This document shows, one piece after another, positions 1-14,130 of a DNA stretch of 15,144 bases. Every line of letters starts with the position of its first letter. Position 1 is the first letter of the stretch. Under the pieces are notes generated by a model, which had not been told where the DNA came from, made no database searches, and was given only the letters and a program-made list of their open reading frames with translations. The translations under genes and the position numbers were made by a program. Origin of the DNA: an uncultured Thermococci archaeon (GTDB lineage: Archaea; Methanobacteriota_B; Thermococci; Thermococcales; Thermococcaceae); NCBI GenBank assembly GCA_964615185.1, contig CAZTOS010000057.1:1-15144 (forward strand), in the 5' to 3' direction.

Positions 1-432
1 GTCTACAATCACAATATCCCTCTCAGAAAGCAAGACATGCATTAAAAAAGCTCTTGCAAGGGCTATTGCTGGACACAGGCAACCTTCTTTGCTCTGCTCT
101 ATGCTTCCAACAACGACAAGCTTTAAATTTGGCTTTATTGCTATACCGTATTGGTCGGCCAAATCATCAACCTTCGGGGTTAGCGAGAATAGAACTCCCC
201 AGCCCTCACCTGGCCTTGCTCCGGTCCTTTCCTCTGCAAGCTTTTCATTTCGCGAAAGTGGAACAATTTCTAAAGCTTCCTCGAATGGGATTCCCAAACT
301 TTGAGCAAGATTGGGGACTGAATCTGTGTCTAAAGCCAATATGTTATACCCTTTGTCGGCCAAGATATGGGCCAATAAAGCCGAAATTGTAGTTTTTCCA
401 ACTCCCCCTTTTCCAGCAACGAGTATCTTCAT
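1..432 (-). CDS. cooC: CO dehydrogenase nickel-insertion ATPase CooC (5' part; runs off the left edge of the window)
   Basis: Not in the ORF track; translated by hand from the ATG at 432: MKILVAGKGGVGKTTISALLAHILADKGYNILALDTDSVPNLAQSLG...EGCLCPAIALARAFL...DIVIVD. Has the deviant Walker A (GKGGVGKT), DxD and the CxC Ni-binding motif (GCLC). A GGGGG RBS lies upstream, and the gene directly follows cooS. Confidence 0.95.
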   Translation of the reverse strand, partial: MKILVAGKGGVGKTTISALLAHILADKGYNILALDTDSVPNLAQSLGIPFEEALEIVPLSRNEKLAEERTGARPGEGWGVLFSLTPKVDDLADQYGIAIKPNLKLVVVGSIEQSKEGCLCPAIALARAFLMHVLLSERDIVIVD

Positions 433-486
433 TTTAGTGCCCCCAATGATTAAATCGTGCTTCTTCTATAATTGCTTTTTCAAAAT

Positions 487-506
487 TAAAAACCAAAAAG
501 GAAAAA
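487..506 (-). terminator. Oligo-T tract after cooS (possible archaeal terminator or attenuator)
   Basis: Minus strand reads TTTTTCCTTTTTGGTTTTTA immediately after the cooS stop codon. Confidence 0.45.
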
Positions 507-2408
507 TCAAACAGGCCATTTAAGCTTCTTCCTTTTCTCAATTATCACATTGTATATTGTTTCCGCTGCTTTTACTGGGTCTGGCTCAACGTAGAATTTT
601 CCTCCAATGAGATCCTCAATGTCATCCGTGAGGAGTTTTGTAACCTTCTGGCTTCCAAGCACAGGTGGAACTACTCCTAAGTGGGTGAACACACCGCTTG
701 CAACGAAGTAGGTTCCGATTGATACTGCTTTTTCACTCATCCATTCCGGAGCAGAGCCGGCTGCAGGCAAGTCTGGAATATCAACCCCCAATGCATCTGC
801 CAGAGCTCCAAGAACAATCAGGATTCTTGAACAGTCAACACAGCTTCCCATGTGCAGACATGGTGGAATTCCAAGTGCCTCACACACAGCTTTAAGTCCG
901 TCTCCTGCCATCTTTGTCGCTTCAGGTGTTAATAAACCGTCCATTGCTGCAGCAATTCCCCAGCAACCAGTTCCAACTACCAAAATGTCTCTCTTTATGA
1001 GTTCTTTGGCTATTGTTACATGACTGTGATTGTGTTTAACCTTTGGATTGTTACACCCAACGATTCCAACAACTCCTTTAATTGTCCCCTCTTTAAGTGC
1101 ATTAATGAGAGGCTCAAGGGTTCCTCCTAAAGCCTCAAGAATTGCCTCGACACTGAAGCCTGCAACGACTTCACTCTTGTGTTTTGGAATGTAAACTCTC
1201 TCCTTTGGTCTGTTCTGGAAGTTTTCAATTGCGATTTTGATTATCTCCTTGGCAATTTCATCTGCTTTCTCTGGTTTGAACTCTATGTGCACTGCTCCAG
1301 GTATGTGGCCTTTTGGTTCGGTTGTGATTATCTTTGTGTGATAACAGCCGGCTACATCAGTCAATGCAGGCATTAAGCACTGGTAATCCACAATCATGGC
1401 CTCAACAGCACCTGTTATTATTGCTAACTCTTGCATCAGGAAGTTTCCGGCCGGAGGAATACCAAGTCTCATCAAAACTTCATTTCCGGTACAGCACATT
1501 CCTACAACGTTTACTCCCTTAGCCCCATATTTTTTGGCCAATTTCTGCATCTCCTCACTTTGAGCGACTTCAACTATCTTCATTGAGAGCACTGGATTGT
1601 GGCCGTGAACAACTATATTCACATAATCCTCTTTGAGAACACCTAAGTTTGCAACAGTTTTAATCGGTTTTGGTGTTCCGAAGAGGATGTCGCTTAGATA
1701 AGTAGCCATCATTGAGCCACTCCAGCCATCAGCCAATGCTGTTCTAACGCCGTGAAGGAGAAGTGAAGCTGGATCTGCATCGACACCTATATGTGTTCTG
1801 TGCATGCATTCACAAATTTCCCTATCTATTGCTCTTGGCAGGACTCCAAGCCTCTCCCACACTTTAATCCTCTTCTTAGGCGCCGTTGCCATGAGTAGCC
1901 TCATTGGCTCATCATCAGGCTTTCCAAACTCCCATTCTAAGATGTGTGCAACTTCTAAGGCTATCTCACTCTCAGTTTTCCCTTCTACATCTATTCCCAA
2001 AGCTTGAGCTAACCCCTTAAGCTTCTCAACGTCAGTCAGCTTGTACCCCTTGAACTCCCCCGTTGCTGCTCCTTTAAACACATGAACGATATCTCTTGCA
2101 TGATCGCTGTGTGCTGCAGCACCAGCTGCAATCATCCTCAAAAGGTTTCTTGCAACTATTGTATCAGCATCTGCTCCACAAACACCTCTGGTTGGCCCAG
2201 CGCCAAATGGGTCAATCCTACATGGACCCATGTTACAGTTTCTACAACACACTCCCAGAAGACCAAAGCCACATTGGGGTTGCTGTTCTAAAAAGCGGTG
2301 CCAAGCAGTCTTCACACCCTCCTCCTCAGCCTTCTCAATCAGGTCAGCAACTCCCTTGGTTTCGGAAACCTGCTTTGCAGGAACCTTAAACTTTATGTAT
2401 TCCGCCAT
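507..2408 (-). CDS. cooS: Anaerobic Ni,Fe carbon monoxide dehydrogenase catalytic subunit
   Basis: D/B-cluster motif QCGFGLLGVCCRNCNMGPC...C; AAHSDH histidines; C-cluster ligands in HGHNP, MCCTG, DYQC, GCNN, TGCW and GSCVD; SEKA lysine. ATG at 2408 is preferred over GTG at 2417 because GAGGTG (2420-2415) then serves as the RBS. Confidence 0.98.
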   Translation of the reverse strand: MAEYIKFKVPAKQVSETKGVADLIEKAEEEGVKTAWHRFLEQQPQCGFGLLGVCCRNCNMGPCRIDPFGAGPTRGVCGADADTIVARNLLRMIAAGAAAHSDHARDIVHVFKGAATGEFKGYKLTDVEKLKGLAQALGIDVEGKTESEIALEVAHILEWEFGKPDDEPMRLLMATAPKKRIKVWERLGVLPRAIDREICECMHRTHIGVDADPASLLLHGVRTALADGWSGSMMATYLSDILFGTPKPIKTVANLGVLKEDYVNIVVHGHNPVLSMKIVEVAQSEEMQKLAKKYGAKGVNVVGMCCTGNEVLMRLGIPPAGNFLMQELAIITGAVEAMIVDYQCLMPALTDVAGCYHTKIITTEPKGHIPGAVHIEFKPEKADEIAKEIIKIAIENFQNRPKERVYIPKHKSEVVAGFSVEAILEALGGTLEPLINALKEGTIKGVVGIVGCNNPKVKHNHSHVTIAKELIKRDILVVGTGCWGIAAAMDGLLTPEATKMAGDGLKAVCEALGIPPCLHMGSCVDCSRILIVLGALADALGVDIPDLPAAGSAPEWMSEKAVSIGTYFVASGVFTHLGVVPPVLGSQKVTKLLTDDIEDLIGGKFYVEPDPVKAAETIYNVIIEKRKKLKWPV

Positions 2409-2418
2409 CTCAACCACC

Positions 2419-3054
2419 TCAATACCACTTAACCTCTAAGTAAGCTGTATAAACATCCATCGGACTGACTTTCTCTTCCTTTTTCTTTTCCTTAACAACT
2501 GGCTCCACGTATACAATGCCCGGAACTTTCAAGCCCGAAGTTAGTTCCTCCGCTCTTTCTTTTCTAATCTCATTAAGAATTTCTTCAAGGGTTCCAAACT
2601 TCAATGCATTGGTGGGGCAAGCCTCTACACATGCCGGCTCTCTGCCTTCCCTAACTCTCTCAATGCATGAATCGCACTTTAGAACAACCTTGTACTCTGG
2701 TTCATATTTCGGATGTCCAAATGGACATGCCATAACACACATCAAACAACCAATACATTTGTTGGCATTGAGTATTACAAAGCCCTCCTCGCTCTTCTTT
2801 ATTGCTCCAGTTGGGCAGACTTTTATACATGGAGCATCTTCACAATGCTGACATCTCAGCGGAACATTGAAGAAATCTGCAACTACGACCTTTAGTCTTG
2901 GTTTGGGCGTTGGTTTTTCGAAGATTGCTCCGAATAATGTTTTGCTCATTGAATGCTCCACTGCACATGCTATTTCACAAGACCTGCATCCCATGCACTT
3001 CTTTGGATCAATGTAAATTGTTGGTCTCTCTAAATCTGTTCCAAGAAGCGACAT
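2419..3054 (-). CDS. cooF: 4x[4Fe-4S] electron-transfer subunit CooF
   Basis: Cys motifs CMGCRSCEIAC, CQHCEDAPCIKVC, CIGCLMCVMAC and CDSC...PACVEAC; lies directly upstream of cooS. Start moved from 3147 to ATG 3054, which follows a GAGGTGA RBS (3066-3060). Confidence 0.93.
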   Translation of the reverse strand: MSLLGTDLERPTIYIDPKKCMGCRSCEIACAVEHSMSKTLFGAIFEKPTPKPRLKVVVADFFNVPLRCQHCEDAPCIKVCPTGAIKKSEEGFVILNANKCIGCLMCVMACPFGHPKYEPEYKVVLKCDSCIERVREGREPACVEACPTNALKFGTLEEILNEIRKERAEELTSGLKVPGIVYVEPVVKEKKKEEKVSPMDVYTAYLEVKWY

Positions 3055-3088
3055 TGCTATCACCTCAAGAGTTAGGTAAACAAAGGAG

Positions 3089-3156
3089 ATTAATAAGGAG
3101 ACCGTGTTCGGCAAATAACTCAAAAATTCCTTAATTTGTTCATGCACAGAAACACG
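3089..3156 (-). promoter_or_regulatory. Putative cooFSC promoter: TATA-like TTATTAAT with an upstream imperfect inverted repeat
   Basis: TTATTAAT on the minus strand at 3096-3089. Inverted arms CGTGTT (3103-3108) / AACACG (3151-3156) enclose an inner AAATT-cctt-AATTT (3124-3137). Confidence 0.5.
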
Positions 3157-3158
3157 TT

Positions 3159-4280
3159 TCAGTATTCATAAAGTGATACTATTGCTTTTTCTCTTATTTC
3201 CCTGTACTCCTTTAGGAGGTCTTTAGCAAACTCTGTTAGAATTGTTATTCCTTTTTTCCTGCCCCCTCTGACAGATATAATCAGAGAAATGCCCAGTTTT
3301 TCTTCGAGACTTCTTATTTTTTCCCAATACGTCGAAGGAGAAACCCCAAGAGCTTTACATGCAGCTCTAAATGAATTAACCTGGGAAATTAGTTCCAAAA
3401 GTTCCAAAATCTCCCCAGGGATCTCAACACCCTCTTTTGTCACGAATGAGACCCGTATCTTAGGTGAAAGTCCAACGACGTTTCGATTTATTGCACAGGG
3501 TGAAAAGAGCATTTTTCTTAGATCTTCTCTTGTTATTCTCTTATAATTCACTTCAAATCTTGAAAGTGGGCATTTTGAGAAGTTCCCATATGGATTCAAG
3601 TACAGGGCTTTACAGTTCTCAGCACTTGGAGAGGTCAGTAGCGTTACTGGATAATTGTCTATGAAGACTTTAATGGCATTGTAGAAATATTTCTTTCCAT
3701 AATGAAGACCAATTTCAACGTTTTCTTTTTTCGCAATTTTTTCAAGAAACTTATCTGCATATGGAGATGCATAAAGCTTTGGTCCTAACGTTATCTTTAA
3801 CCCATAACTTTTGCATACTTCAATTGTTGAAAGGATTTCAGCAAAGTCAGAGTTGGAATCCAGCAAAATATACGCCTCAAGGTTGTCTATACCCTGAGAA
3901 AGGAGCATTTTTACTGTCTGAAGGTTTGACTTTAAATCTTTATAAGAGGGTGTAATTAGAGAAATAAAATCAACGTTCTCAAGGGAAGTTTTGTGAAGGA
4001 AATTTCTTGAAACAGAGACTGGAATGAAGAGGGTAAGCTTTCTGCAGAGTTCCATAGTTTGCCGGATTATGACATCAATCTTTGGATGAAGGAGGGGATT
4101 TGGACATATCAAAAGCCCCTCATCAAATTTAAAATCCTCAAGGTGAGAGGTGAGTATTTCCAATGCCTCAAGAGGAAGCATTATCCCGGCACAGCCAAAT
4201 TTCTCTTTCCAGGGACATATCAGACAACTACCGTCACATTTGCTTGAAGGTTGAACTGCTAAGATGCCCATATTCCTCAC
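3159..4280 (-). CDS. corR: CO-responsive transcriptional regulator CorR (C-terminal ModE/LysR-type winged HTH; N-terminal Cys-rich domain)
   Basis: C-terminal ELLELISQVNSFRAACKALGVSPSTYWEKIRSLEEKLG...RGGRKKGITILTEFAKDLL matches the HTH_1/ModE N-terminal pattern. Position between a V4R gene and cooF matches the corQR-cooFSC order of carboxydotrophic Thermococcus. The GTG start overlaps the corQ stop (GTGA); an alternative ATG is at 4271. Confidence 0.85.
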   Translation of the reverse strand: MRNMGILAVQPSSKCDGSCLICPWKEKFGCAGIMLPLEALEILTSHLEDFKFDEGLLICPNPLLHPKIDVIIRQTMELCRKLTLFIPVSVSRNFLHKTSLENVDFISLITPSYKDLKSNLQTVKMLLSQGIDNLEAYILLDSNSDFAEILSTIEVCKSYGLKITLGPKLYASPYADKFLEKIAKKENVEIGLHYGKKYFYNAIKVFIDNYPVTLLTSPSAENCKALYLNPYGNFSKCPLSRFEVNYKRITREDLRKMLFSPCAINRNVVGLSPKIRVSFVTKEGVEIPGEILELLELISQVNSFRAACKALGVSPSTYWEKIRSLEEKLGISLIISVRGGRKKGITILTEFAKDLLKEYREIREKAIVSLYEY

Positions 4281-4837
4281 TCAAATATTACTTCAAATCC
4301 ACAGAAGGAGTTGCCAAGTCCCCAGCAGTAGATTTCACGAGTTACATTCTTTCCAACGAGTTCTTCCATAACTCCTTGAATAAGCCCTGCTTCAAAGTCA
4401 CATAGGATTCTGCCAATAGGAGGTGCTCGGTAACAACTGATACACTCATATATGTTCACTTTCATCTTGCTGAATGACTCATCTACAATATCAAGAAGCC
4501 CTATTTTTTGATTTAGAAACACTTTTGGCAGATCATCAATGCTCCTAATCTCTCCGGTTTCTATCAATCTGCGAGCTAAATTATATCCAGCACCCCTCAA
4601 AATTAGAGTCCTCAAAGATGGGCTGTATTCAAGCATGCCATACAAAATCATTCTGAATGTTCTCACGTATTTCCTGTCCTCCGGAGAGATTTTCACGAAA
4701 AACGGACGTACGACATTAAAGTAATTTTCTGGGGTTAGTCTAATCTCTTCTCTGTGTTTCTTTTTGCTTTTAACCTCCTCTTTGTAAATTTTCCTCCACT
4801 TTTCTATTAAAACACTAATATCCTCCGTACCAATCAC
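4277..4837 (-). CDS. corQ: V4R-domain regulatory protein CorQ
   Basis: V4R motifs YECISC...CDFEAGLIQG...EIYCWGLGNSFCGF; overlaps the start of the downstream wHTH regulator, upstream of the CODH genes. Confidence 0.85.
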   Translation of the reverse strand: MIGTEDISVLIEKWRKIYKEEVKSKKKHREEIRLTPENYFNVVRPFFVKISPEDRKYVRTFRMILYGMLEYSPSLRTLILRGAGYNLARRLIETGEIRSIDDLPKVFLNQKIGLLDIVDESFSKMKVNIYECISCYRAPPIGRILCDFEAGLIQGVMEELVGKNVTREIYCWGLGNSFCGFEVIFE

Positions 4838-4862: not shown

Positions 4863-4894
4863 ACTTTAAGATTTTTGGTCAAAAATCTTTTCAA
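4863..4894. promoter_or_regulatory. Back-to-back divergent BRE-TATA promoters (corQ / sfsA) forming a 10-bp inverted repeat
   Basis: AAGATTTTTG-GT-CAAAAATCTT at 4868-4889. The minus strand reads AAAAATCTTAAAG about 30 nt before the corQ start, and the plus strand reads AAAAATCTTTTCAA about 30 nt before ATG 4918. Confidence 0.55.
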
Positions 4895-4917
4895 TGAAAA
4901 AATTTATGCTGTTTATT

Positions 4918-5613
4918 ATGATACTCCTAAAGCTTCCCATTATTGAAGGGGAGTTCATTGAGAGAATAAACAGATTCGTTGGATTGGTCAGAATAAACGG
5001 TGAAGTTAAGCGAACCCTTATAACAAACACTGGACGCTTGGAGGAATTTATGGTTAAAGGTAGAAAGTGCTTCTGCACTCCAAAACAAGGAGGAAAAACA
5101 GACTTTGTTTTAGTTGCTTTTGAAGATAGAAATTCTAAAGGTGCAGTAATTGATACAAGAACTCAAATGAGGGCATTTGAGAGGATTATCGAGCTTGGAT
5201 TAATTTCATGGCTGAGAGATTGCCACATTAAAAAGAGGGAAGTCAAAATTGGGGCTTCTCGACTGGACTACCTTTTGGAGTGTAATGGAGAAGAAATCTG
5301 GATTGAAATGAAAAGTGCTGTTCTCAGGGAAGGGGAATATGCAATGTATCCCGACTGTCCAAGCTTAAGAGGTCAGAAGCACATCAGAGAGCTCATAAAA
5401 CTCCGAGAGGAGGGCAAAAGGACAATGGTTGTTTTTATTGGAGCTCTGCCAGATGTCAAGAGGTTTAAGCCTTATGCTAAAGGGGACCCAGAAATTGCAA
5501 GGCTTTTAAAGGAAGCAAAAGATAGAGGAGTTGAAATAAAAGCCTTGAGTATAGCTCTCTTACCCTCAGGGGAAGTTGTTCTTGAGAGGGATAATCTTGA
5601 GGTTGAAATTTAG
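4918..5613 (+). CDS. sfsA: DNA/RNA nuclease SfsA (sugar fermentation stimulation protein homologue)
   Basis: Motifs FIERINRF, NTGRLEE, SRLDYLL...WIEMKS (PD-(D/E)xK), YPDCPSLRGQKH and PYAKGDP. The start is uncertain: ATG at 4894, 4906 or 4918. Confidence 0.92.
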   Translation: MILLKLPIIEGEFIERINRFVGLVRINGEVKRTLITNTGRLEEFMVKGRKCFCTPKQGGKTDFVLVAFEDRNSKGAVIDTRTQMRAFERIIELGLISWLRDCHIKKREVKIGASRLDYLLECNGEEIWIEMKSAVLREGEYAMYPDCPSLRGQKHIRELIKLREEGKRTMVVFIGALPDVKRFKPYAKGDPEIARLLKEAKDRGVEIKALSIALLPSGEVVLERDNLEVEI

Positions 5614-5686
5614 GAGAGTTTTTAAAGCCCATAGAGTTTAACACTCCTTAGGGGGTAACACCCCCAAGCTTAAAGAGGTGTCTGGA

Positions 5687-6541
5687 ATGACGATTGTGGA
5701 TGTTAGAATTTTAGTTGAAGGTGCGAGCGACGTTGAGGTTGTTAGCAAAGCTCTGCAAGGTCTTGCTTTAGGAAGTGAATACAACATAACGATTTCCTCA
5801 ATAATTCCAACGACGAATTTAGAAATTGCAAAAAGTGCAGCAGCTGGAGCAGATTTGCTTATAATAGCAACTGACGCCGATAGAGTTGGAAGAGAACTTG
5901 CAGACAGGCTCTTCAGAGAGCTCAGCGAATTAGTTGGACATGTTGAAAGAATGAAAATCCCACTAGGACACGACTTGGAGCACATAGATGTCGAGCTTGT
6001 GAGGAAAGAGCTCAAAAATACTCTCGTGAGAGCAGGATTGAAGAGTCTGCAACTTCTCCCAGAATACATGGCCCTCAGAAATCAGTTGCTTGACTTGAAA
6101 GGAAAATATGAGATGCTTGAACAAGAGAAACAGAAGCTTGAAAGTCAGCTCCAGGAAATTGAGCAGAACTATGAAGAACTTAGGCAGGAATATCAGAGGT
6201 TAAAGGATGAAAATGAAAACCTAAAGATACTTCTTGATAAGAGGAGCAATTTAGTTAGGATTGAAGATGCATGGAAGCAGATTTTCCCAGCAGAAGAGGT
6301 TCCAGACGAAGAAATCATAGGGGAAGCCGTTGAAAGGCTCGGGTTACAAGGTAGGGTAATTGTCGGTCAAGGATACATCTATGCAGAGGAAGAGAAACTG
6401 ATTGAAGAACTCCTAAAAATTGTATACCTTACCATGACAATTGCAAAACCGGAAGAGCAGGAAAAACCAGAAGAGAAAACTGAAGAAAGCGAGAAAATAG
6501 AAGAAACCGAGGCCTTTCATGAAAAAATAGAAGAGCTTTGA
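5687..6541 (+). CDS. Archaeal TOPRIM-domain protein with central coiled coil (COG4026-like)
   Basis: N-terminal ILVEGASD and IATDADRVG TOPRIM motifs, a long heptad-rich E/K/Q/L segment and an acidic tail. GAGGTG RBS precedes ATG 5687. Confidence 0.8.
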   Translation: MTIVDVRILVEGASDVEVVSKALQGLALGSEYNITISSIIPTTNLEIAKSAAAGADLLIIATDADRVGRELADRLFRELSELVGHVERMKIPLGHDLEHIDVELVRKELKNTLVRAGLKSLQLLPEYMALRNQLLDLKGKYEMLEQEKQKLESQLQEIEQNYEELRQEYQRLKDENENLKILLDKRSNLVRIEDAWKQIFPAEEVPDEEIIGEAVERLGLQGRVIVGQGYIYAEEEKLIEELLKIVYLTMTIAKPEEQEKPEEKTEESEKIEETEAFHEKIEEL

Positions 6542-6570
6542 CCCTTTATCCCCTTTTTTCGTGATGAATC

Positions 6571-7404
6571 ATGGACACGATTGAAGAATTTGAAATGTAT
6601 CTTGAATTGGAAGGCAAGAGTCAGAATACAGTTAGAATGTATTCCTATTACGTGAGGAAGTTTTTAGAAGAGGGAAATGACTTAAATGCCCGCTCTGCCC
6701 TTCGCTTCTTGGCAATGCTTAAAAAGAGTGGATATTCAAATAAAAGTTTAAATCTTGTTGTTCAGGCTTTAAAAGCTTATTTCAGATTTGAAGGACTCGA
6801 AGAGGAGGCTAAAAAAATTAAATCTCCAAAAGTTCCCAGAAGTTTGCCAAAAAGCCTAACAAAGGAGGAAGTTAAAAAACTCCTGAGTGCAATTCCACCA
6901 ACAAGGAAAAGGGATAGGCTTATTGTGTTACTGCTCTACGGTTCTGGACTTAGGGTCAGCGAACTCTGTAACTTGAAAATTAGAGATATTGACTTTAAAC
7001 GCTCTTTAATTATCGTCAGAGGTGGAAAAGGGGCAAAAGACAGAATCGTGCCTATTCCAAAAGCTCTCCTCAAGGAAATTGAAGATTACTTAAAAATGAG
7101 AAATGATAACAGTGAATATCTACTTGTTGAAGAAAGAAGGAATAAAAAAGACAAGCTCTCACCAAAGACCGTATGGTACATCCTTGACAAATATGGGAAA
7201 AAAGCCGGAATTAAAGTTACACCGCATATGCTCAGGCACAGCTTTGCAACTCATATGCTTGAAAATGGGATTGATATTAGAATCATTCAAGAAATTTTAG
7301 GACATTCAAACCTCTCAACGACCCAAATCTACACTAAGGTTACCGTTGAACACTTAAGGAGAGCACAAGAAAAAGCAAGGCTGATTGAGAGTTTGATTGA
7401 GTAG
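6571..7404 (+). CDS. xerA: Tyrosine recombinase XerA (chromosome dimer resolvase)
   Basis: Catalytic R-K-H-R-H-Y set in [24 protein letters not shown] and [12 protein letters not shown]; 277 aa; no attached tRNA or other element genes. Confidence 0.9.
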
Positions 7405-7413
7405 CAATCGAAA

Positions 7414-7429
7414 TTTTTATTTTATTTTT
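7414..7429 (+). terminator. Oligo-T terminator after xerA
   Basis: TTTTTATTTTATTTTT about 10 nt after the stop codon. Confidence 0.5.
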
Positions 7430-7439
7430 GAGTTTTGAA

Positions 7440-7749
7440 ATGGTGGCTTTGAGGATTATTGGGGTTGTGATTTTGATATTCCTAATAACCTTTGCATTGG
7501 GATGTACTGAAAAAGGAAACAGTCCCACAACGGGTTTGCAGAGCCCTTCAATTTCGCATCAACCTTTAAAGCCCGAAATTCAAAACATCAAAATTAACCA
7601 AGCAGGACCGCGAGATTCGGGCAAAAGCTGAGAGCATAATCCTTGAAATGGAAACACCTTTGGGAGTGAGGAACTACACGATGGAAAGAGCTGGAGAGAT
7701 TTTCACTTTAAAGCTCAAAACAGATGAAGGTGTGTACAGAGGGTTCTAG
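7440..7749 (+). pseudogene. Frameshifted, probably truncated lipoprotein gene
   Basis: Signal peptide with lipobox-like ending (MVALRIIGVVILIFLITFALGC) and a P/T/S linker; this frame stops at 7631. Protein-like sequence continues in the +1 frame (QDREIRAKAESIILEMETPLGVRNYTMERAGEIFTLKLKTDEGVYRGF*) to TAG 7747-7749. Confidence 0.55.
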
Positions 7750-7771
7750 CACCCATTCTGGTCTATCACGT

Positions 7772-9046
7772 TCATCCAATATCCAGCAGAAACTTCCACA
7801 GCGGAACGACCTTCACCGTTGTCCACGCGGTTTCCATCTCTTTTTCCTCGTCGAGCGTTACGATGGTGAGGTTTCTGCATCTCAGCTTTCTTCCAGCCTC
7901 GACAAGAGCCAGGACTTCCCTATCTTTGCTCTCAGACAGATTTTGAGTGACCTGAATTAGCTCCACCACCCTTCCAGACTCAACGAGCACGAAGTCCACT
8001 TCTCTCTCCCCGGAGCCGCCGTAATAGTAAATCTTGAGCAGGGAGTTGCGGTAGTACCTGCGCCTCATCAGCTCAAGGAAAACGGTGTTCTCCATGTCCC
8101 TCGCAATGTCTTTGCGTGAGAACAGTGAGAATCCCGTATCCACAAGGTAGACCTTCTTGGGTGCTCTCTGGGATTCCTTCTTGGAACGGGCGTATTTTGG
8201 CAGGAAGAAGACAAAGAACGAATCCTCAAGGGCCTTGAGGTATTCGAGGGCGGTCGTCTTCGATGTCCCAAACTCAGACTTCAAAAAGCCGTGTATGGAG
8301 CTATAAGAGGTGTACTTGGCATAGCTTGAGAGGAGCAGCTTGATAACGCTTTCTATAAGGGCAATGTTCCGAATTCTGTGCCTCTCAATGATGTCCTTGG
8401 TTATCATTACAGACAGGTACTCCTCAAGGATTCTGACCTTATCCTTCATAAGAGCAACTTCTGGAAATCCCCCGAACCTGAGATACTCATCAAGAAGCTT
8501 CTTTACCCTGTGAACCTTCCGGCCGTAGAGGTCGCGTCTTTCAATTTGGAAGCCCTTAAACCTCAGAAACTCCCTGAAGGAAAGGGGCAGGATGGTGTAC
8601 GTTACCGCCCGACCTCTGAGCTGAGTTGCTATCTCCCTTGAGAGGAGCCTTGATGATGAACCGGTAACCCCAACCCTGAAGCCCTCATCCGTGAGATACC
8701 TGACCCCAACCTCCCAGTCCGGGACGTTCTGCACCTCATCGAGGAGAAAGATAATCTCTGTCCCAATGTTCTCGGGATAAAGGTCAAAGTACGCGTCGAG
8801 AATTTTTGGAAAGTCCCTGCCGGTTATTCCAAACAAGAGAGGGTTTTCGAAGTTGAGGTAAATATATCGCTCTTTCTCAACTCCAATCATGGAATACAGG
8901 AGGTATGTCTTTCCGGAGCGCCTTGGTCCGATTATTGCGGTTGCCCTTCCCCCGACAAGAGCTGGCTGAACTTCTCTCTCAATGACCTCTGGCAAATCCC
9001 TCTCGTGGAATAGGCGAATGTAGCGTTTTATGTCCTCCAGATCCAT
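7772..9046 (-). CDS. AAA_14-type ATPase with wHTH and C-terminal DUF4143/PD-(D/E)xK nuclease-like domain (COG1373)
   Basis: Walker A GPRRSGKT, Walker B FLLDEVQ, VTGSS, YLRFGGFPE, KKVYLVDTG, ENTVFLEL and REVDFV...LIQV. ATG 9046 is preferred because it lies 30 nt from the TATA box. Confidence 0.9.
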   Translation of the reverse strand: MDLEDIKRYIRLFHERDLPEVIEREVQPALVGGRATAIIGPRRSGKTYLLYSMIGVEKERYIYLNFENPLLFGITGRDFPKILDAYFDLYPENIGTEIIFLLDEVQNVPDWEVGVRYLTDEGFRVGVTGSSSRLLSREIATQLRGRAVTYTILPLSFREFLRFKGFQIERRDLYGRKVHRVKKLLDEYLRFGGFPEVALMKDKVRILEEYLSVMITKDIIERHRIRNIALIESVIKLLLSSYAKYTSYSSIHGFLKSEFGTSKTTALEYLKALEDSFFVFFLPKYARSKKESQRAPKKVYLVDTGFSLFSRKDIARDMENTVFLELMRRRYYRNSLLKIYYYGGSGEREVDFVLVESGRVVELIQVTQNLSESKDREVLALVEAGRKLRCRNLTIVTLDEEKEMETAWTTVKVVPLWKFLLDIG

Positions 9047-9083
9047 GGTACAGTATACTGTACCAATATTTATAAATTTTTGG
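9046..9083 (-). promoter_or_regulatory. BRE-TATA promoter plus perfect 20-bp palindromic operator for the ATPase gene
   Basis: CCAAAAA-TTTATAAA on the minus strand (9083-9069), followed by TGGTACAGTATACTGTACCA (9046-9065), whose end coincides with the A of the start codon. Confidence 0.8.
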
Positions 9084-9102
9084 TTCATTGGACAGTACTA
9101 CA

Positions 9103-10485
9103 TCAGTAAATTCCCTTTCTCCTTAACAAAGCAAGATAGCTTGTGAAAGCTCCCGCTGAAATGGTATCTCCAAGCCCTACTGTTGATACTGGGTTTTTAA
9201 CCAGTCTTGTTGGAATGATGACAACTTTATATTCCCTCGTTCTCAGTTTTCTCTTTGCCTCTTCAAATCTAAGCTTCACGAATTCACCATATTCGTTATA
9301 TGGCACCTTCAATCCAACTTTAAAGTCCTCTGGACTCTTTATGTCTCCAAGAGAAGCCCTTGCTGCTGCAAGTGTTGTTGCAATCTCCAAGCTCTGCCTA
9401 AGTTCATCTTCACTGAGCGGGTTGTCTTTGTGAGTAATATACATGAGATAATAAATCGTGTGAATTTGAAGAATCTCAAGATTGAGCTCGTCAAGAATAA
9501 TTTTCCCACCCAAAACTGTGTCTTCAATTCTATTGTAGTTGAATATTCTGTCTGCAAGCTTTGGATAGCCGAGAGAGTTGAGAATATGAGCAATCTCTGA
9601 CTCATCCATTCCAACGCTATCAGCTAAGGGGAAGATGTTGTAAATGACTTTCTTCCTCAGCTCTCTGTCCTGAATTGATGCAAACTCAACGTGAACCCTG
9701 ATGTCCTTGTTTTTCTTAAGAAGTCTTATATCCTCCTTTGCCTTCCTTAAGTAATAGTTGGCATCTTTTCCATCAGAATATCGTTTTTTAATTCCTTGAT
9801 ATCCAGATAAAATAGCCCCGTCCACAAGCTCACCAATTTCCGGCAAAAGCTGCTTTAAGTCTTCCTTGGTCTCAATCCTAATGCTCTCGAAACGGGAAGC
9901 AACAATAAAGCGACCAGAATGAGGAACTTCTATAACCTCATTGCCCAGTTTAAATCTTGTTCCTTTTCTAAATTCAAAGATTCTGTTCACCTTTATGGGG
10001 TCATTTTCACGATACGCTTCAATGGGCTTTTTTAAAACCAGCTTTCCATTCTCAACAACAGGATAAAGAAGATTCGATTTGTTAACAAACATTTGAGCTT
10101 GTCTCTTAGCTAAAATGGGAGAATATGCTATAACCTTTTTAAAATCAAGATTAGCAAGAAGGTTGGCAATAATTCCAACTTGACCTCCCATTCTCTCCAC
10201 ATCGTACTTAAATCTCTCATCAAACCATGTGTGCATTTCCTCATTTACAAGAGGAACAGCCATAGGTTTTCCAGTTTTTAAAGCATGAATAAGACGAGCA
10301 ACGAAATCAATTGGTTCGTTGATTTCTCTTGGATACTCTTCCATTCTCTTCTTTATGTTTTCTGCCCCAAGCTCGTTGATCAGCTTTTCAATATGTTCCC
10401 TTTTTAGATAAACTATTGCATCCACGTTGATATTATACGCTAAGTATAAGCTGAGCTTTTGGGCATCTTGAAAAACATCAATCAT
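9103..10485 (-). CDS. pfkC: ADP-specific phosphofructokinase
   Basis: LAYNINVDAI, ERMGGQVGIIAN, NRIFEF, HVEFASI, SVGMDESE and PVSTVGLGDTISAGAF (ribokinase-fold catalytic Asp). The sequence resembles Thermococcales ADP-PFK more than ADP-glucokinase. GAGGGTGA RBS precedes ATG 10485. Confidence 0.9.
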   Translation of the reverse strand: MIDVFQDAQKLSLYLAYNINVDAIVYLKREHIEKLINELGAENIKKRMEEYPREINEPIDFVARLIHALKTGKPMAVPLVNEEMHTWFDERFKYDVERMGGQVGIIANLLANLDFKKVIAYSPILAKRQAQMFVNKSNLLYPVVENGKLVLKKPIEAYRENDPIKVNRIFEFRKGTRFKLGNEVIEVPHSGRFIVASRFESIRIETKEDLKQLLPEIGELVDGAILSGYQGIKKRYSDGKDANYYLRKAKEDIRLLKKNKDIRVHVEFASIQDRELRKKVIYNIFPLADSVGMDESEIAHILNSLGYPKLADRIFNYNRIEDTVLGGKIILDELNLEILQIHTIYYLMYITHKDNPLSEDELRQSLEIATTLAAARASLGDIKSPEDFKVGLKVPYNEYGEFVKLRFEEAKRKLRTREYKVVIIPTRLVKNPVSTVGLGDTISAGAFTSYLALLRRKGIY

Positions 10486-10488
10486 TGG

Positions 10489-10505
10489 TATCACCCTCGG
10501 TGAGT
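10489..10505. promoter_or_regulatory. Thermococcales glycolytic motif (TGM; TrmBL1/Tgr site)
   Basis: TATCAC-CCTCG-GTGAGT against consensus TATCAC-N5-GTGATA. It lies downstream of the pfk BRE-TATA (CGAAAACATTTTAAA, minus strand, 10544-10530) and overlaps the RBS. Confidence 0.7.
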
Positions 10506-10596: not shown

Positions 10597-11310
10597 TCAA
10601 TATTCCATGAAGAGCTTCCCAAGCCATGGAATCTTTTCTCGAACATCCAATTCTCTTAAGGCAAGCCATAACGATGCTTGATTGCTCGTAACAACTGGTA
10701 CCCCTAAATCCCCTTCAAGAGCTTCAATTATATCGAAAGTCCTTAAATTGGTGCAGCTTATGAAAACTGCATCCACATCATCAATGAACATTGCCTTAGC
10801 CATGCGATAAGCTTCATAGGGTTCAAGTTTTCCCACCTGAAGGTTATCAACAATTCCAAGTCCTCTAATATCAAGAACTTCAAATTCGTTAGCCTCAAGA
10901 AATTCCTTCTCTCTCTGATTTATCTCATCAGTATAGGGGGTTATTACCATTATCTGCTGGGCATCTAACATCTTCAGTGCCTCAACAACAGCCGTGCTTG
11001 TTGTTACAACCGGAATGTTAACTTCTCTTTCAATTTTTTCCTCAAGTTCAGCCTCAAAGTTAATTCCGCCTATAAAAGAACCACTTGTACATCCATAAAG
11101 GATTAAATCGACATTTGCATCTTTCAAAAGTCGTGCACTCTCAACCGCAAGAGAACTCATTTTTAAAAGCTCTTCCTCTGTGATACCCTTTAACGGCATT
11201 CTCGCTGTGTGAAGGGAAACACCCTCAGGCAGGGCAGAGTGGAGCTCCATCTCCATTGTGGTGTTTGATGATGGAACTATCAGTCCAATCCTCCCTCTCC
11301 ATCCATACAT
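10597..11310 (-). CDS. Maleate cis-trans isomerase / arylmalonate decarboxylase family protein (Asp/Glu racemase superfamily)
   Basis: GRIGLIVPSSNTTME, YGCTSGS and FISCTNL (two catalytic Cys), TPY and PVVTSNQA. AGGTGGG RBS precedes ATG 11310. Confidence 0.88.
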   Translation of the reverse strand: MYGWRGRIGLIVPSSNTTMEMELHSALPEGVSLHTARMPLKGITEEELLKMSSLAVESARLLKDANVDLILYGCTSGSFIGGINFEAELEEKIEREVNIPVVTTSTAVVEALKMLDAQQIMVITPYTDEINQREKEFLEANEFEVLDIRGLGIVDNLQVGKLEPYEAYRMAKAMFIDDVDAVFISCTNLRTFDIIEALEGDLGVPVVTSNQASLWLALRELDVREKIPWLGKLFMEY

Positions 11311-11406
11311 GAATCCCACCTAAAAGAAGTTCTCAGGGCATTACTTAAACCTTTGGTTCACAAAAGGTTAATTAGCTAAAAACATAACGTTAAGACGGTG
11401 ATTTTC

Positions 11407-12012
11407 ATGGAATTAAGTGAGGCAATAGCTAAGAGAACTTCCGTGAGATTTTATGAGGAAAGAGAAGTTGATGAGGAAACTTTAAAGGAGCTAATTAAAG
11501 CTGCTATAAGAGCACCAACTGCAAGCGGATTGGAGAACTGGCTTTTTGTAGCATACAAAAGTAAGGACATTCAAGAAAAAATCTATGAGCTTATAAAGCA
11601 GGGACATATTGAGTATTTTACTGAAAGAGGATTACCAGAGGAAAAAATGGAGAAGCTGCTGAAAAGATTTGAAGAAGGAATGTACAAGGCCCCGCTCTAT
11701 TTAGGGGTATTCATTAACAAAAATGTTAAAGCACTACAAGATGAGAAATACAGCAAGTTGGAGTTTTGCTTTTCATTAGAAAGTGCTGCGATGGCAATTG
11801 AAAACTTAATGCTAAAGGCTGTTGAGCTCGGATTAGGAACATGCTACATAGGGGTTGCATGCTTCGAGGACATAGAAAAAGAGCTTAAGAAAATGGCCGG
11901 TCTGGGAGAGGAGTACTTCCTTGTGGGGTTGATAACAGTAGGATATCCCAAAAGAAAAGTTATACCAAGAGAAAGAAAGAAGGATGTTGATGAAGTTTTG
12001 AGGGTACTTTAA
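11407..12012 (+). CDS. Nitroreductase family (NAD(P)H-flavin oxidoreductase)
   Basis: AIAKRTSVRFY, APTASGLENW, AIENLMLKAVELGLGTCYIG and ITVGYP motifs. GGTGA RBS precedes ATG 11407. Confidence 0.92.
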   Translation: MELSEAIAKRTSVRFYEEREVDEETLKELIKAAIRAPTASGLENWLFVAYKSKDIQEKIYELIKQGHIEYFTERGLPEEKMEKLLKRFEEGMYKAPLYLGVFINKNVKALQDEKYSKLEFCFSLESAAMAIENLMLKAVELGLGTCYIGVACFEDIEKELKKMAGLGEEYFLVGLITVGYPKRKVIPRERKKDVDEVLRVL

Positions 12013-12061
12013 GGAATCTTTTTATTAAACCTCCACCCATTAATACGTCAATGGTGAAAAA

Positions 12062-12382
12062 ATGATTGAGTTTGTGATACTGCTGGGTCTTATTGGTGGA
12101 TGGTTAATCTTTGCATCCACACTATTTTTAATGCTCGCCTTAGGTAAGATGTGGGGATTATTCGGGATTATCCTTCTAATTGCTGGAATTGAAATAAACC
12201 ACAAACTGAAGGCAAAGTACATGAAAGCGGTTATGGATTATTCTCCAAGAGCAAAAGAACTCGCAATGCATATATTTGAGATGAATGAGCTTATATTAAT
12301 GTCCTCTTACGTAATAGCCCTATCCCTCTACGCAGTCCTCCAAAGATACATAGAGATCATGATAAAACTACCCACGGTGTGA
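12062..12382 (+). CDS. Small membrane protein of unknown function
   Basis: Three hydrophobic segments; GGTGA RBS; ends 4 nt before thiI, so probably co-transcribed. Confidence 0.75.
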   Translation: MIEFVILLGLIGGWLIFASTLFLMLALGKMWGLFGIILLIAGIEINHKLKAKYMKAVMDYSPRAKELAMHIFEMNELILMSSYVIALSLYAVLQRYIEIMIKLPTV

Positions 12383-12386
12383 GAGT

Positions 12387-13532
12387 ATGTTCAACTGTTT
12401 GATAATTCGATATGGAGAGATCGGAACAAAATCGAAACAAACAAGAAGATGGTTTGAGAACGTATTAGCCAATAACATTAGAGAGGCGTTGGTCAGCGAG
12501 GGAATTGGCTATAAAAGTATCTTTGCGAAACATGGAAGGATAATAGTCAAAACAAATAAAGCAAGGGAGAGTGTGGATGTTTTAAAGCGGGTATTTGGTA
12601 TTGTTTCCCTTTCTCCAGCGATGGAAGTTGATGCTGAATTAGAAAAAATTAACAAGACTGCTCTAAGGCTCTTCCGCAAAAAGAAGAGAGAGCTTAATTT
12701 GGAAAAGCCCAAGTTCAGAGTTACAGCAAGGCGAATTACAAAGGAGTTTCATCTGAAAAGTCCAGAAATTCAAGCTAAAGTTGGTGAATATATCTTGAAG
12801 AATGAAGAGGCTGATGTAGATTTGAAAAACTATGACATAAATGTTGGCGTTGAAATTATGGAAGGCAAAGCCTACATCTTTGTTGATAAAATAAAAGCTT
12901 TTGGCGGCTTACCCATAGGGACGCAGGGAAAAGTCGTTGCCTTGCTCAGTGGAGGCATAAACTCCTCAGTAGCAGCTTTTTTAATGATGAAGCGTGGATG
13001 TGAGATTATACCCGTCCATGTTTACATGGGTGAAAAAACCCTTGAAAAAGTCAGAAAAATATGGAATCAGCTGAAAAAGTACCATTACGGCGGGAAGAGT
13101 GATTTAATCGTAATCAAGCCAAAAGAAAGAGAAAGAATTCTCCAAAAGCTTAAAGAACTTGGGAAAGAGAACTACACCTGCATTTTTTGCAAGTTCATGA
13201 TGGTCAAAAATGCTGATAAGATAGCGAGAGAATTTGGGGCTAAAGGTATCGTTATGGGAGACTCCCTCGGACAGGTCGCTTCTCAAACATTAGAAAATAT
13301 GTATATAGTCAGCCAAGCGAGCGATTTACCTATTTACAGACCGCTCATAGGACTGGACAAGGAAGAAATAATAGGAATAGCAAAAGAAATAGGCACTTTT
13401 GAGCTATCAACGCTTCCAGAGGATGAAGTTTCATTCATTCCAAAGCACCCAGTGATTAAAGGCTCTTGGGAAGAATTCAAAAAGCTCTACAGAGAAATCT
13501 TTGGAGAAGAACCCAAAAAGAGGGGGTGCTGA
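12387..13532 (+). CDS. thiI: ThiI/TtuI-family tRNA 4-thiouridine synthetase, full length (NFLD + THUMP + PP-loop) with degenerate catalytic motifs
   Basis: IIRYGEIGTKS N-terminus, THUMP region FRVTARR, GGLPIGTQGKVVALLSGGINS, CIFC, GDSLGQVASQT and RPLIGLDKEEI. Confidence 0.9.
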   Translation: MFNCLIIRYGEIGTKSKQTRRWFENVLANNIREALVSEGIGYKSIFAKHGRIIVKTNKARESVDVLKRVFGIVSLSPAMEVDAELEKINKTALRLFRKKKRELNLEKPKFRVTARRITKEFHLKSPEIQAKVGEYILKNEEADVDLKNYDINVGVEIMEGKAYIFVDKIKAFGGLPIGTQGKVVALLSGGINSSVAAFLMMKRGCEIIPVHVYMGEKTLEKVRKIWNQLKKYHYGGKSDLIVIKPKERERILQKLKELGKENYTCIFCKFMMVKNADKIAREFGAKGIVMGDSLGQVASQTLENMYIVSQASDLPIYRPLIGLDKEEIIGIAKEIGTFELSTLPEDEVSFIPKHPVIKGSWEEFKKLYREIFGEEPKKRGC

Positions 13533-13536
13533 AATA

Positions 13537-14130
13537 GTGAAGGCCGTTGCTTTGCTCAGCTCAGGAATAGATTCACCCGTAGCTATCTACTTGATGCTTA
13601 AGAAGGGATTAGAGGTTATTCCAATCCACTTTAAACAAGATGGGGGCAAGTATAGGAAAGTCCAAAAAATTTGGAAGCAGCTGAAAGAACTCTACCCTGA
13701 AAGGCTGAAAGAATTAGTCGTCGTTGATGTTTATGAATACCAAGCTCCTATTTTTGAAAAGCTAATCGAGCTGAAAAAAGAGAAATGGATTTGTGTATTC
13801 TGCAAGTTCACGATGTACAAGAAGGCAACAGAGATAGCAAGAGAAAACGGGGCATTAGCCCTTATAACTGGAGATTCTTTAGGGCAGGTAGCCTCCCAAA
13901 CCCTTGATAACTTGCTTATAATTTCACTGGCAACTGATTTACCAATCTTAAGGCCTCTTATTGGATTAGATAAAGAGGAAGTTGTGAGTATTGCTAAGGA
14001 AATTGGAACTTTTAATATAAGTATTGAACCTGAAGAAGGTTGCCCATTTGTACCAAAGCATCCAATAATCCGAGGATCACTGGGAGAATTCAAGAAAATT
14101 TATAAAGAAGTTTTTGGAACTTCCTGTTAA
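13537..14130 (+). CDS. ThiI-like PP-loop catalytic-domain-only protein (no THUMP)
   Basis: KAVALLSSGIDSPVA, CVFC, GDSLGQVASQT, RPLIGLDKEE and GCPFVPKHP. GTG 13537 follows a GGGGGTG RBS at the end of thiI and is preferred over TTG 13501. Confidence 0.88.
   Translation: MKAVALLSSGIDSPVAIYLMLKKGLEVIPIHFKQDGGKYRKVQKIWKQLKELYPERLKELVVVDVYEYQAPIFEKLIELKKEKWICVFCKFTMYKKATEIARENGALALITGDSLGQVASQTLDNLLIISLATDLPILRPLIGLDKEEVVSIAKEIGTFNISIEPEEGCPFVPKHPIIRGSLGEFKKIYKEVFGTSC

Follow-up and report, generated by a model that had tools for sequence, protein, structure and literature searches.

A tandem pair of ThiI/TtuI paralogues in Thermococcaceae as a candidate two-gene tRNA U8 sulfurase

Thermococcus, Pyrococcus and Palaeococcus are the named members of the Thermococcaceae, a family of deep-sea, heat-loving archaea. 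A stretch of 15,144 nucleotides from an uncultured member of this family (contig CAZTOS010000057.1, hereafter the window; host assembly of 138 contigs, 95.6% complete) carries two tandem paralogues of ThiI/TtuI, here called L (long) and S (short) (Table 1). An initial annotation placed them 4 nt apart, and the coordinates, the AATA gap and the codons that it cited are all correct. L has the tRNA-binding domains ascribed to it (Pfam ThiI_fer and THUMP, followed by ThiI), and S, which is 56% identical to L over the catalytic domain, matches ThiI only. The motif assignments hold as well: L has an altered PP-loop, in which Pro194 is changed to Ser in addition to the Asn codon already described, and Val at the third-Cys position next to an intact CxxC, and S retains its PP-loop and all three Cys residues.

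Table 1. Features of the L and S genes and the adjoining gene remnant, as positions in the window
Feature	Position	Strand	Remark
L, long ThiI/TtuI paralogue, 381 aa	12387-13532	+	
L NFLD (aa 5-76) and THUMP (aa 83-167), tRNA-binding domains	12399-12887	+	Pfam PF22025, PF02926
L PP-loop pyrophosphatase (PPase) domain, aa 178-370	12918-13496	+	PF02568; bears predicted dimer interface
L PP-loop SGGINSS, aa 188-194	12948-12968	+	Asn192 (AAC, 12960-12962) and Ser194 are a local allele
L CxxC, Cys265 and Cys268	13179-13190	+	kept
L Val348 (GTT) at third-Cys position	13428-13430	+	
L C-terminal Cys381	13527-13529	+	tail contacts S in model
Candidate ribosome-binding site of S, GGGGTG in the last codons of L plus the 4-nt gap	13523-13536	+	putative
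S, THUMP-less catalytic-domain paralogue, 197 aa, GTG start	13537-14130	+	NCBIfam PRK08349
S PP-loop SSGIDSP	13558-13578	+	
S CxxC, Cys86 and Cys89	13792-13803	+	
S third Cys, Cys169 (TGC)	14041-14043	+	
PLP-enzyme gene remnant, last 42 codons	14240-14365	+	PALP family PF00291; 71% identity to residues 236-277

The two proteins divide the features of a TtuI between them. L joins NFLD, THUMP and PP-loop PPase domains in one chain and passes the NCBIfam ThiI equivalog model TIGR00342 (341.7 against a cut-off of 264.5), but Val348 breaks its set of three cluster Cys residues. S has all three (C86, C89 and C169) together with SSGIDSP, lacks NFLD and THUMP, matches PF02568 only, and stays below the TIGR00342 cut-off at 196.9 bits; it passes PRK08349, an uncharacterised family named “hypothetical protein” (331.6 against 251). 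L ends 11 residues past PF02568, with no Pfam match to the C-terminal rhodanese domain of E. coli-type ThiI. Judged by sequence, the pair would resemble a [4Fe-4S] TtuI in its action, with neither chain alone showing all of the defining features.

The close spacing is local to the host. Close relatives have a longer L-S spacer with a separate GAGGTGA, which is absent in the host, and in most of the family a DUF998 gene separates L from S. In relatives, as at locus L160 of genome G090, the L stop is followed by about 17 extra bases, with GAGGTGA between two TGAAATA copies; the host has just one TGAAATA, which fits a deletion between the short repeats, with the final L codons then serving as ribosome-binding site. 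The PLP-enzyme gene, which is presumably cysteine-synthase-like, follows S in many relatives, and its full orthologue was not found in the host assembly. Upstream, at 10597-12382, an Asp/Glu racemase-family gene (minus strand), a nitroreductase gene and a gene for a 106-aa membrane protein precede L in an order common to many relatives. The five minus-strand genes at 1-4837 we take to be a carbon monoxide dehydrogenase cluster (CooC-, CooS- and CooF-like proteins, an HTH regulator and a V4R protein), and 4894-10494 presumably encodes an SfsA-like nuclease, a Toprim coiled-coil protein, a Xer-type recombinase, an AAA+ ATPase and an ADP-dependent sugar kinase. A sigma-70 promoter scan of the locus, which uses a bacterial model unsuited to archaea, gave matches at chance level.

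Across the family, 97 genomes were searched with L, S and a third paralogue, B, and proteins were extracted from 160 loci. These cover every listed orthologue locus of L and of S; of the 44 B genes, 20 are included. The L alignment has 74 rows, fragments from G053, G065 and G067 being excluded. The initial annotation had raised the loss of both the third Cys and the PP-loop Asp as potentially systematic features of L. For the third Cys this is borne out, as 71 of 74 Thermococcaceae L orthologues lack it (Ile in 57, Val in 13, Met in 1 and Cys in 3). The Asp is kept by 73 of 74, which rules out its loss as a family trait. The counter-explanation offered at the same time, that L orthologues keep all catalytic residues and the changes are strain-specific decay, thus applies to the Asp and fails for the third Cys. 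In the 73 proteins compared, L active-site positions are 99.3% conserved versus 88.7% for the rest of the catalytic domain, and further active-site lesions occur in only five of the 74 (G000, G080, G084, G088 and G091). S is stricter still: its third Cys is present in 77 of 77 aligned rows, and 75 unbroken copies show no change at 17 scored catalytic sites. Deviations at these sites are confined to the broken copies of G029 (internal stop, locus L117) and G042 (frameshift, L103); a third genome, G015, has a remnant (L101), and two of the three have B. Outside the family, 20 related genomes gave one match each, none above the S family (PRK08349) cut-off.

The host PP-loop is a real allele. A protein 98% identical to L (P0018) reads SGGIDSP at this place, and contigs from two sequencing runs of other studies (X2 and X3) span 12960-12968 with no other letter, excluding an assembly error at 12960. 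A second trait of L is its last residue, which is Cys in 63 of 63 proteins with an intact S in the genome and in five of nine without (G088 aside). The terminal codon is TGC in 50 cases and TGT in 20, and the upstream codons vary. That this Cys is a by-product of the ribosome-binding site of the next gene can be rejected, since both codons are used, those ahead of them are not fixed, and that site is located beyond the stop codon of L; the residue therefore appears to be under selection at the protein level.

The distribution of the genes ties S to a THUMP-bearing partner. Among 80 genomes at least 90% complete, the common profiles are L+S+B (31), L+S (27), P+S (six), B only (four) and P+S+B (three), where P is a degenerate long form and S2 a second type of short gene, both described below. 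Rarer profiles are L with the third Cys alone (two) and L with a broken S and B (two, G029 being counted as broken), and there are single cases of P+S2+B, P+S2, L+B, L with a broken S (G042) and L alone (G059). An intact S or S2 occurs in 69 of the 80, always together with L or P, and S is likewise missing from the four genomes that have neither L nor P, which retain B alone. THUMP and a complete triad coexist, in cis or in trans, in 78 of 80 genomes, and in 34 of 80 they do so in trans only, through two genes; the genomes are kin, and none of these counts is independent.

Loss of the third Cys had also been expected to track the presence of S, and it does so in part. All three genome-linked L proteins with a third Cys come from genomes in which no S was found (G035, complete; G068, 99% complete; G046, 74% complete), and in G035 the flanking genes close over the place of S. 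Two genomes are exceptions: G042, with its frameshifted S, and G059 (90% complete), from which S is cleanly absent, have a Cys-less L, no intact S and no B found. In quick trees, the Cys-bearing L proteins fall at several spots among Cys-less ones. Starred branches force one change only, and a common origin for the EDEC-type L proteins, which bear the Cys, is rejected only at the borderline (p-AU 0.044), so that no number of independent Cys regains is claimed. Locus L107 of G046 and proteins P0108-P0110 represent a divergent full-length L-type lineage with the third Cys in an EDPC loop and the terminal Cys missing; the G046 protein is placed by its catalytic domain with L and S2 and not with S, contrary to what an L/S chimera would predict. 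A metagenome scan recovered one contig with an EDECWC-type L (L199), which is uninformative on S because it ends before the place of S.

In a subset of genomes the long protein is plainly dead. P, the PH1313 type, keeps THUMP and has lost PP-loop, CxxC and tail; it occurs in nine of nine genomes of genus g3 (Pyrococcus-type) and in four others, G001, G051, G056 and the partly assembled G065. Loss of the catalytic motifs across orthologues, which L does not show, is thus found in 12 P-type proteins. In g3, P is accompanied by an unlinked S. In the other P genomes, P is directly followed by S2, a short catalytic gene that is closer to L than to S and keeps the third Cys, the two genes being adjacent or overlapping in place of L. 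This order is seen at loci L070, L071, L072, L146 and L223, the last on a metagenome contig. The P-S2 pairs look like the outcome of a duplication of the L catalytic domain that gave a second split. A short catalytic gene accompanies 12 of 12 complete dead long proteins, and no B was found in eight of the 12 P genomes (six of g3, G051 and G056). Independent origins of P are unsupported (p-AU 0.31 for one clade, and deletions held in common).

What P retains is also uneven. Agreement of the 12 proteins with the L consensus is highest at the 36 modelled interface positions (55%), lower over the remaining catalytic domain (34%) and lowest at the 14 active-site positions (18%). PH1313 of Pyrococcus horikoshii itself (PDB 1VBK) is the best PDB match of L (E 7e-106) and is nested among L orthologues in an NFLD/THUMP tree; it has lost the PP-loop, CxxC and C-terminal 70 residues, all of which L keeps apart from the third Cys. 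The accessible passages of a review describe its crystal as a homodimer and state that its activity “has not been confirmed” (PMC9957541). Given the homodimer, retention of the interface in P does not single out S as the partner. The literature searched yielded no s4U data for Pyrococcus lacking B.

B is a full-length paralogue with all motifs intact, about 44% identical to L and present in 44 of 97 genomes. It adjoins an upstream ThiF-family gene in 20 of 20 loci (L081-L100), and the gene often found 3' of it is, we assume, a SufC-like ATPase, neighbours hinting that B has its own sulfur supply route. Neither B nor an orthologue-level match to its flanking genes was found in the host assembly (best 35% and 34%). 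All five genus-mates at 99% completeness have B, so a host copy may lie in an assembly gap, and the local decay of the L PP-loop may reflect backup by B instead of S. PF1288 of P. furiosus is probably of the B type, given that g3 yielded no full-length triad protein other than B.

Evidence on function comes from T. kodakarensis, an archaeon amenable to genetics. A 2026 preprint, in the text available, states that s4U8 of tRNA-Trp “disappeared upon disruption of ... thiI; Tk0366” (bioRxiv 10.64898/2026.08.09.743744). In the accessible part of a published gene table, TK0366 (576 nt) and TK0368 (1146 nt) lie on one strand, with similar counts in library column C (996 vs 1144) and a primary start site of its own for TK0366 (PMC4247193). 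TK0368 is the L orthologue by size and order, and TK0366 is the S orthologue, a 191-aa protein (P0001) deposited as BAD84555.1, “ThiI-related protein.” Given these lengths, the gene reported to be required for s4U8 is the THUMP-less S. The genome that encodes P0001 (G024) has L and lacks B. The lengths of the other tags in the same preprint passage agree with their names (TK2135, 1254 nt; TK1671, 1002 nt; TK0981, 996 nt), as judged against the sizes that we assumed for them. The disruption reportedly goes back to Hirata 2019, which the preprint cites, and is thus a second-hand report, in one sentence and on one tRNA, that S is required for s4U8, to which a polar effect on TK0365 might have contributed. 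The modification is present in total RNA of the organism, according to the available text of a further source (PMC12124282).

The architecture of known ThiI proteins suggests how such a pair might work. In T. maritima ThiI, RNA is gripped by one subunit's NFLD and THUMP domains with U8 at the partner's PPase site, the dimer interface is mainly PPase-PPase, and a CCA-THUMP ruler sets U8 (PMC4041423, accessible passages). Archaeal TtuI requires a [4Fe-4S] cluster on CxxC plus a third Cys, and an M. maripaludis mutant of the third Cys retained 62% of s4U in vivo (PMC9825150, likewise in the passages available), so that loss of this residue need not kill L. A model of the L:S complex reaches an ipSAE of 0.92 versus 0.01 for the best of three controls (99% of contacts common to runs, partner pLDDT 92), a score that, because solved ThiI homodimers exist, shows likeness and compatibility only and not binding of these copies. 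The mark used for such models is reached by 116 of 157 solved pairs and 2 of 215 mismatched pairs, and these counts hold only roughly with own alignments. The modelled interface consists mostly of PPase residues, and L residues 378-381 touch S. Predicted by AlphaFold as a monomer from an alignment of 20 sequences, L gave a poor model (pLDDT 66.8, below 50 in the tail).

The reading that we consider probable, if well short of assured, is a tRNA U8 sulfurase of the TtuI/ThiI type in which L (or P) and S form an asymmetric pair and S is the catalyst. L and S would dimerise through their PPase domains, the NFLD and THUMP domains of L would grip the acceptor stem and CCA end of the tRNA and offer U8 to the active site of S, and there ATP would adenylate U8 and a [4Fe-4S] cluster on CxxC and Cys169 would deliver sulfide. 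Because S lacks THUMP, no tRNA would be offered to the site of L within the heterodimer. L could therefore lose its third Cys, and some lineages could lose the whole site of the long protein and keep the dimer surface, as in the PH1313 type; the asymmetry seen between L and S is what is predicted if only the S site receives tRNA. The L site is still under selection in Thermococcus-type genomes, implying that L keeps some role, which may be nucleotide or metal binding, or hand-over of sulfur or cluster through the C-terminal Cys.

A division into a tRNA-binding long and a catalytic short subunit, as the initial annotation had it, is well supported by the Cys loss, the co-occurrence of the genes, the trans architecture of ThiI, the dead long forms and the reported knockout of S. 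Its term “pseudoenzyme” is overstated for the Thermococcus-type L, which cannot be a plain pseudoenzyme when 73 of 74 orthologues keep the PP-loop Asp. The conserved C-terminal Cys of L and the intact paralogue B had escaped that annotation. An obligate L:S heterodimer and the assignment of roles within it are what we infer from these lines together. Several observations sit poorly with this asymmetric sulfurase: the 99.3% conservation of an active site that a purely passive L would not need, the 62% of s4U kept by the M. maripaludis mutant (PMC9825150, accessible text), the Cys-less L of G042 and G059, the separate start site of S in T. kodakarensis and its unlinked position in g3, and the homodimeric PH1313 crystal (PMC9957541, accessible text).

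The T. maritima ThiI-RNA complex (PDB 4KR6) belongs to the same fold family as L (E 3.6e-57), and its use of THUMP and active site in trans is the basis of the model; T. maritima ThiI lacks CxxC and, as a symmetric homodimer, has two sites, whereas L:S would have one productive site. The TtuI proteins MMP1354 of M. maripaludis and PF1288 of P. furiosus (He et al. 2022, PMC9825150) have the NFLD-THUMP-PPase order, the PP-loop and the CxxC plus C motif found here, a motif that is complete in S and B. In each of them a single gene encodes one chain with every part, unlike the L/S pair, in which no chain has both THUMP and three Cys residues. Among tRNA-modifying enzymes, ADAT2/ADAT3 and Trm6/Trm61 are heteromers of an enzyme and a pseudoenzyme. 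As with L and S, their subunits are paralogues descended from a homo-oligomer, with catalysis on one and RNA binding on the other. They differ in chemistry and folds; in the present case, entire RNA-binding domains have been lost from the catalytic subunit, and within a single family the state of its partner runs from almost intact to dead.

A bolder version of the asymmetric sulfurase, speculative and in our view unlikely as a whole, would see a graded series from homodimer to heterodimer with all stages extant, and the C-terminal Cys of L as a sulfur or cluster arm serving S across the dimer. The stages would be an intact single gene, a nearly intact L with S, a dead PH1313 type with S, and S2 beside a dead copy. 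The Cys arm would do, in minimal form, what the rhodanese domain does in E. coli ThiI.

Both genes could instead be needed with L as the catalyst, its cluster held by CxxC and the C-terminal Cys (or by two Cys only) and S in an accessory role, loading sulfur or cluster or activating L. The 99% conservation of the L active site, the protein-level selection on the terminal Cys and the in vivo activity of the M. maripaludis mutant (62%; PMC9825150, accessible text) speak for this proposal, and the Tk0366 knockout fits it equally well. It is unworkable, however, in the 12 genomes whose long protein lacks PP-loop, CxxC and tail, eight of them without a B found. In addition, the terminal Cys is lost in four of nine L proteins without an intact S, including the Cys-less G049 and G060, which is where a substitute Cys in cis is most needed, and the L tail reaches S in the model. 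L may be the catalyst in Thermococcus-type genomes, which cannot hold for P genomes, and as a general account we think it unlikely.

Quite improbable is a self-sufficient homodimeric TtuI made of L alone, with S thiolating another substrate or position, an option the initial annotation had left standing for S. L does pass the ThiI equivalog cut-off and its conservation is strong, S is transcribed from a promoter of its own and adjoins the PLP-enzyme gene in many genomes, and in G042 and G059 L persists with no intact S. Yet s4U8 was reported, in the preprint text available, to be lost on disrupting Tk0366 with L present, which disfavours another substrate for S. Moreover, S never occurs without L or P (69 of 69 near-complete genomes), and the third Cys is found in L only where S is missing.

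Conversely, S might be an enzyme with no need of L, acting as a THUMP-less homodimer or borrowing another THUMP protein, with L and PH1313 in a separate RNA-binding job. A THUMP-only protein of 160-180 aa is present in five of five genomes checked, S can be unlinked and separately transcribed, and the knockout fits. The CCA-THUMP ruler that sets U8 in ThiI (PMC4041423, accessible text) argues against it, as do the joint loss of S and L in four genomes, the PPase dimer surface retained by dead long proteins, and the adjacent or overlapping P-S2 pairs in place of L; we regard this alternative as highly improbable. That S is QueC (7-cyano-7-deazaguanine synthase), as suggested by many database names (including those of P0001, P0005 and P0007) and weak PF06508 matches, is effectively refuted by its score of 31.9 against the TIGR00364 cut-off of 150.3, by a true QueC elsewhere in the host (C19:6913-7557, 164.4 bits) and by its grouping with ThiI paralogues.

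No description of a two-gene ThiI was found in the literature searched, most subscription papers and preprint supplements being outside its reach. In its accessible part, one review remarks that Pyrococcus has several ThiI homologues and proposes distinct roles for them (PMC9957541). If correct, the asymmetric L(P):S sulfurase would be the first two-gene s4U8 synthase in that literature. It would give a job to PH1313, a solved structure without confirmed activity, explain several long-puzzling genes, and correct the common mis-annotation of the short protein as QueC. The T. kodakarensis knockout would be re-read, the required “thiI” being a protein without a tRNA-binding domain, and a TtuI with one active site would be a clean tool for dissecting the trans mechanism. 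For the family as a whole, it would mean that about four in ten near-complete genomes (34 of 80) make s4U8, if at all, only with two proteins.
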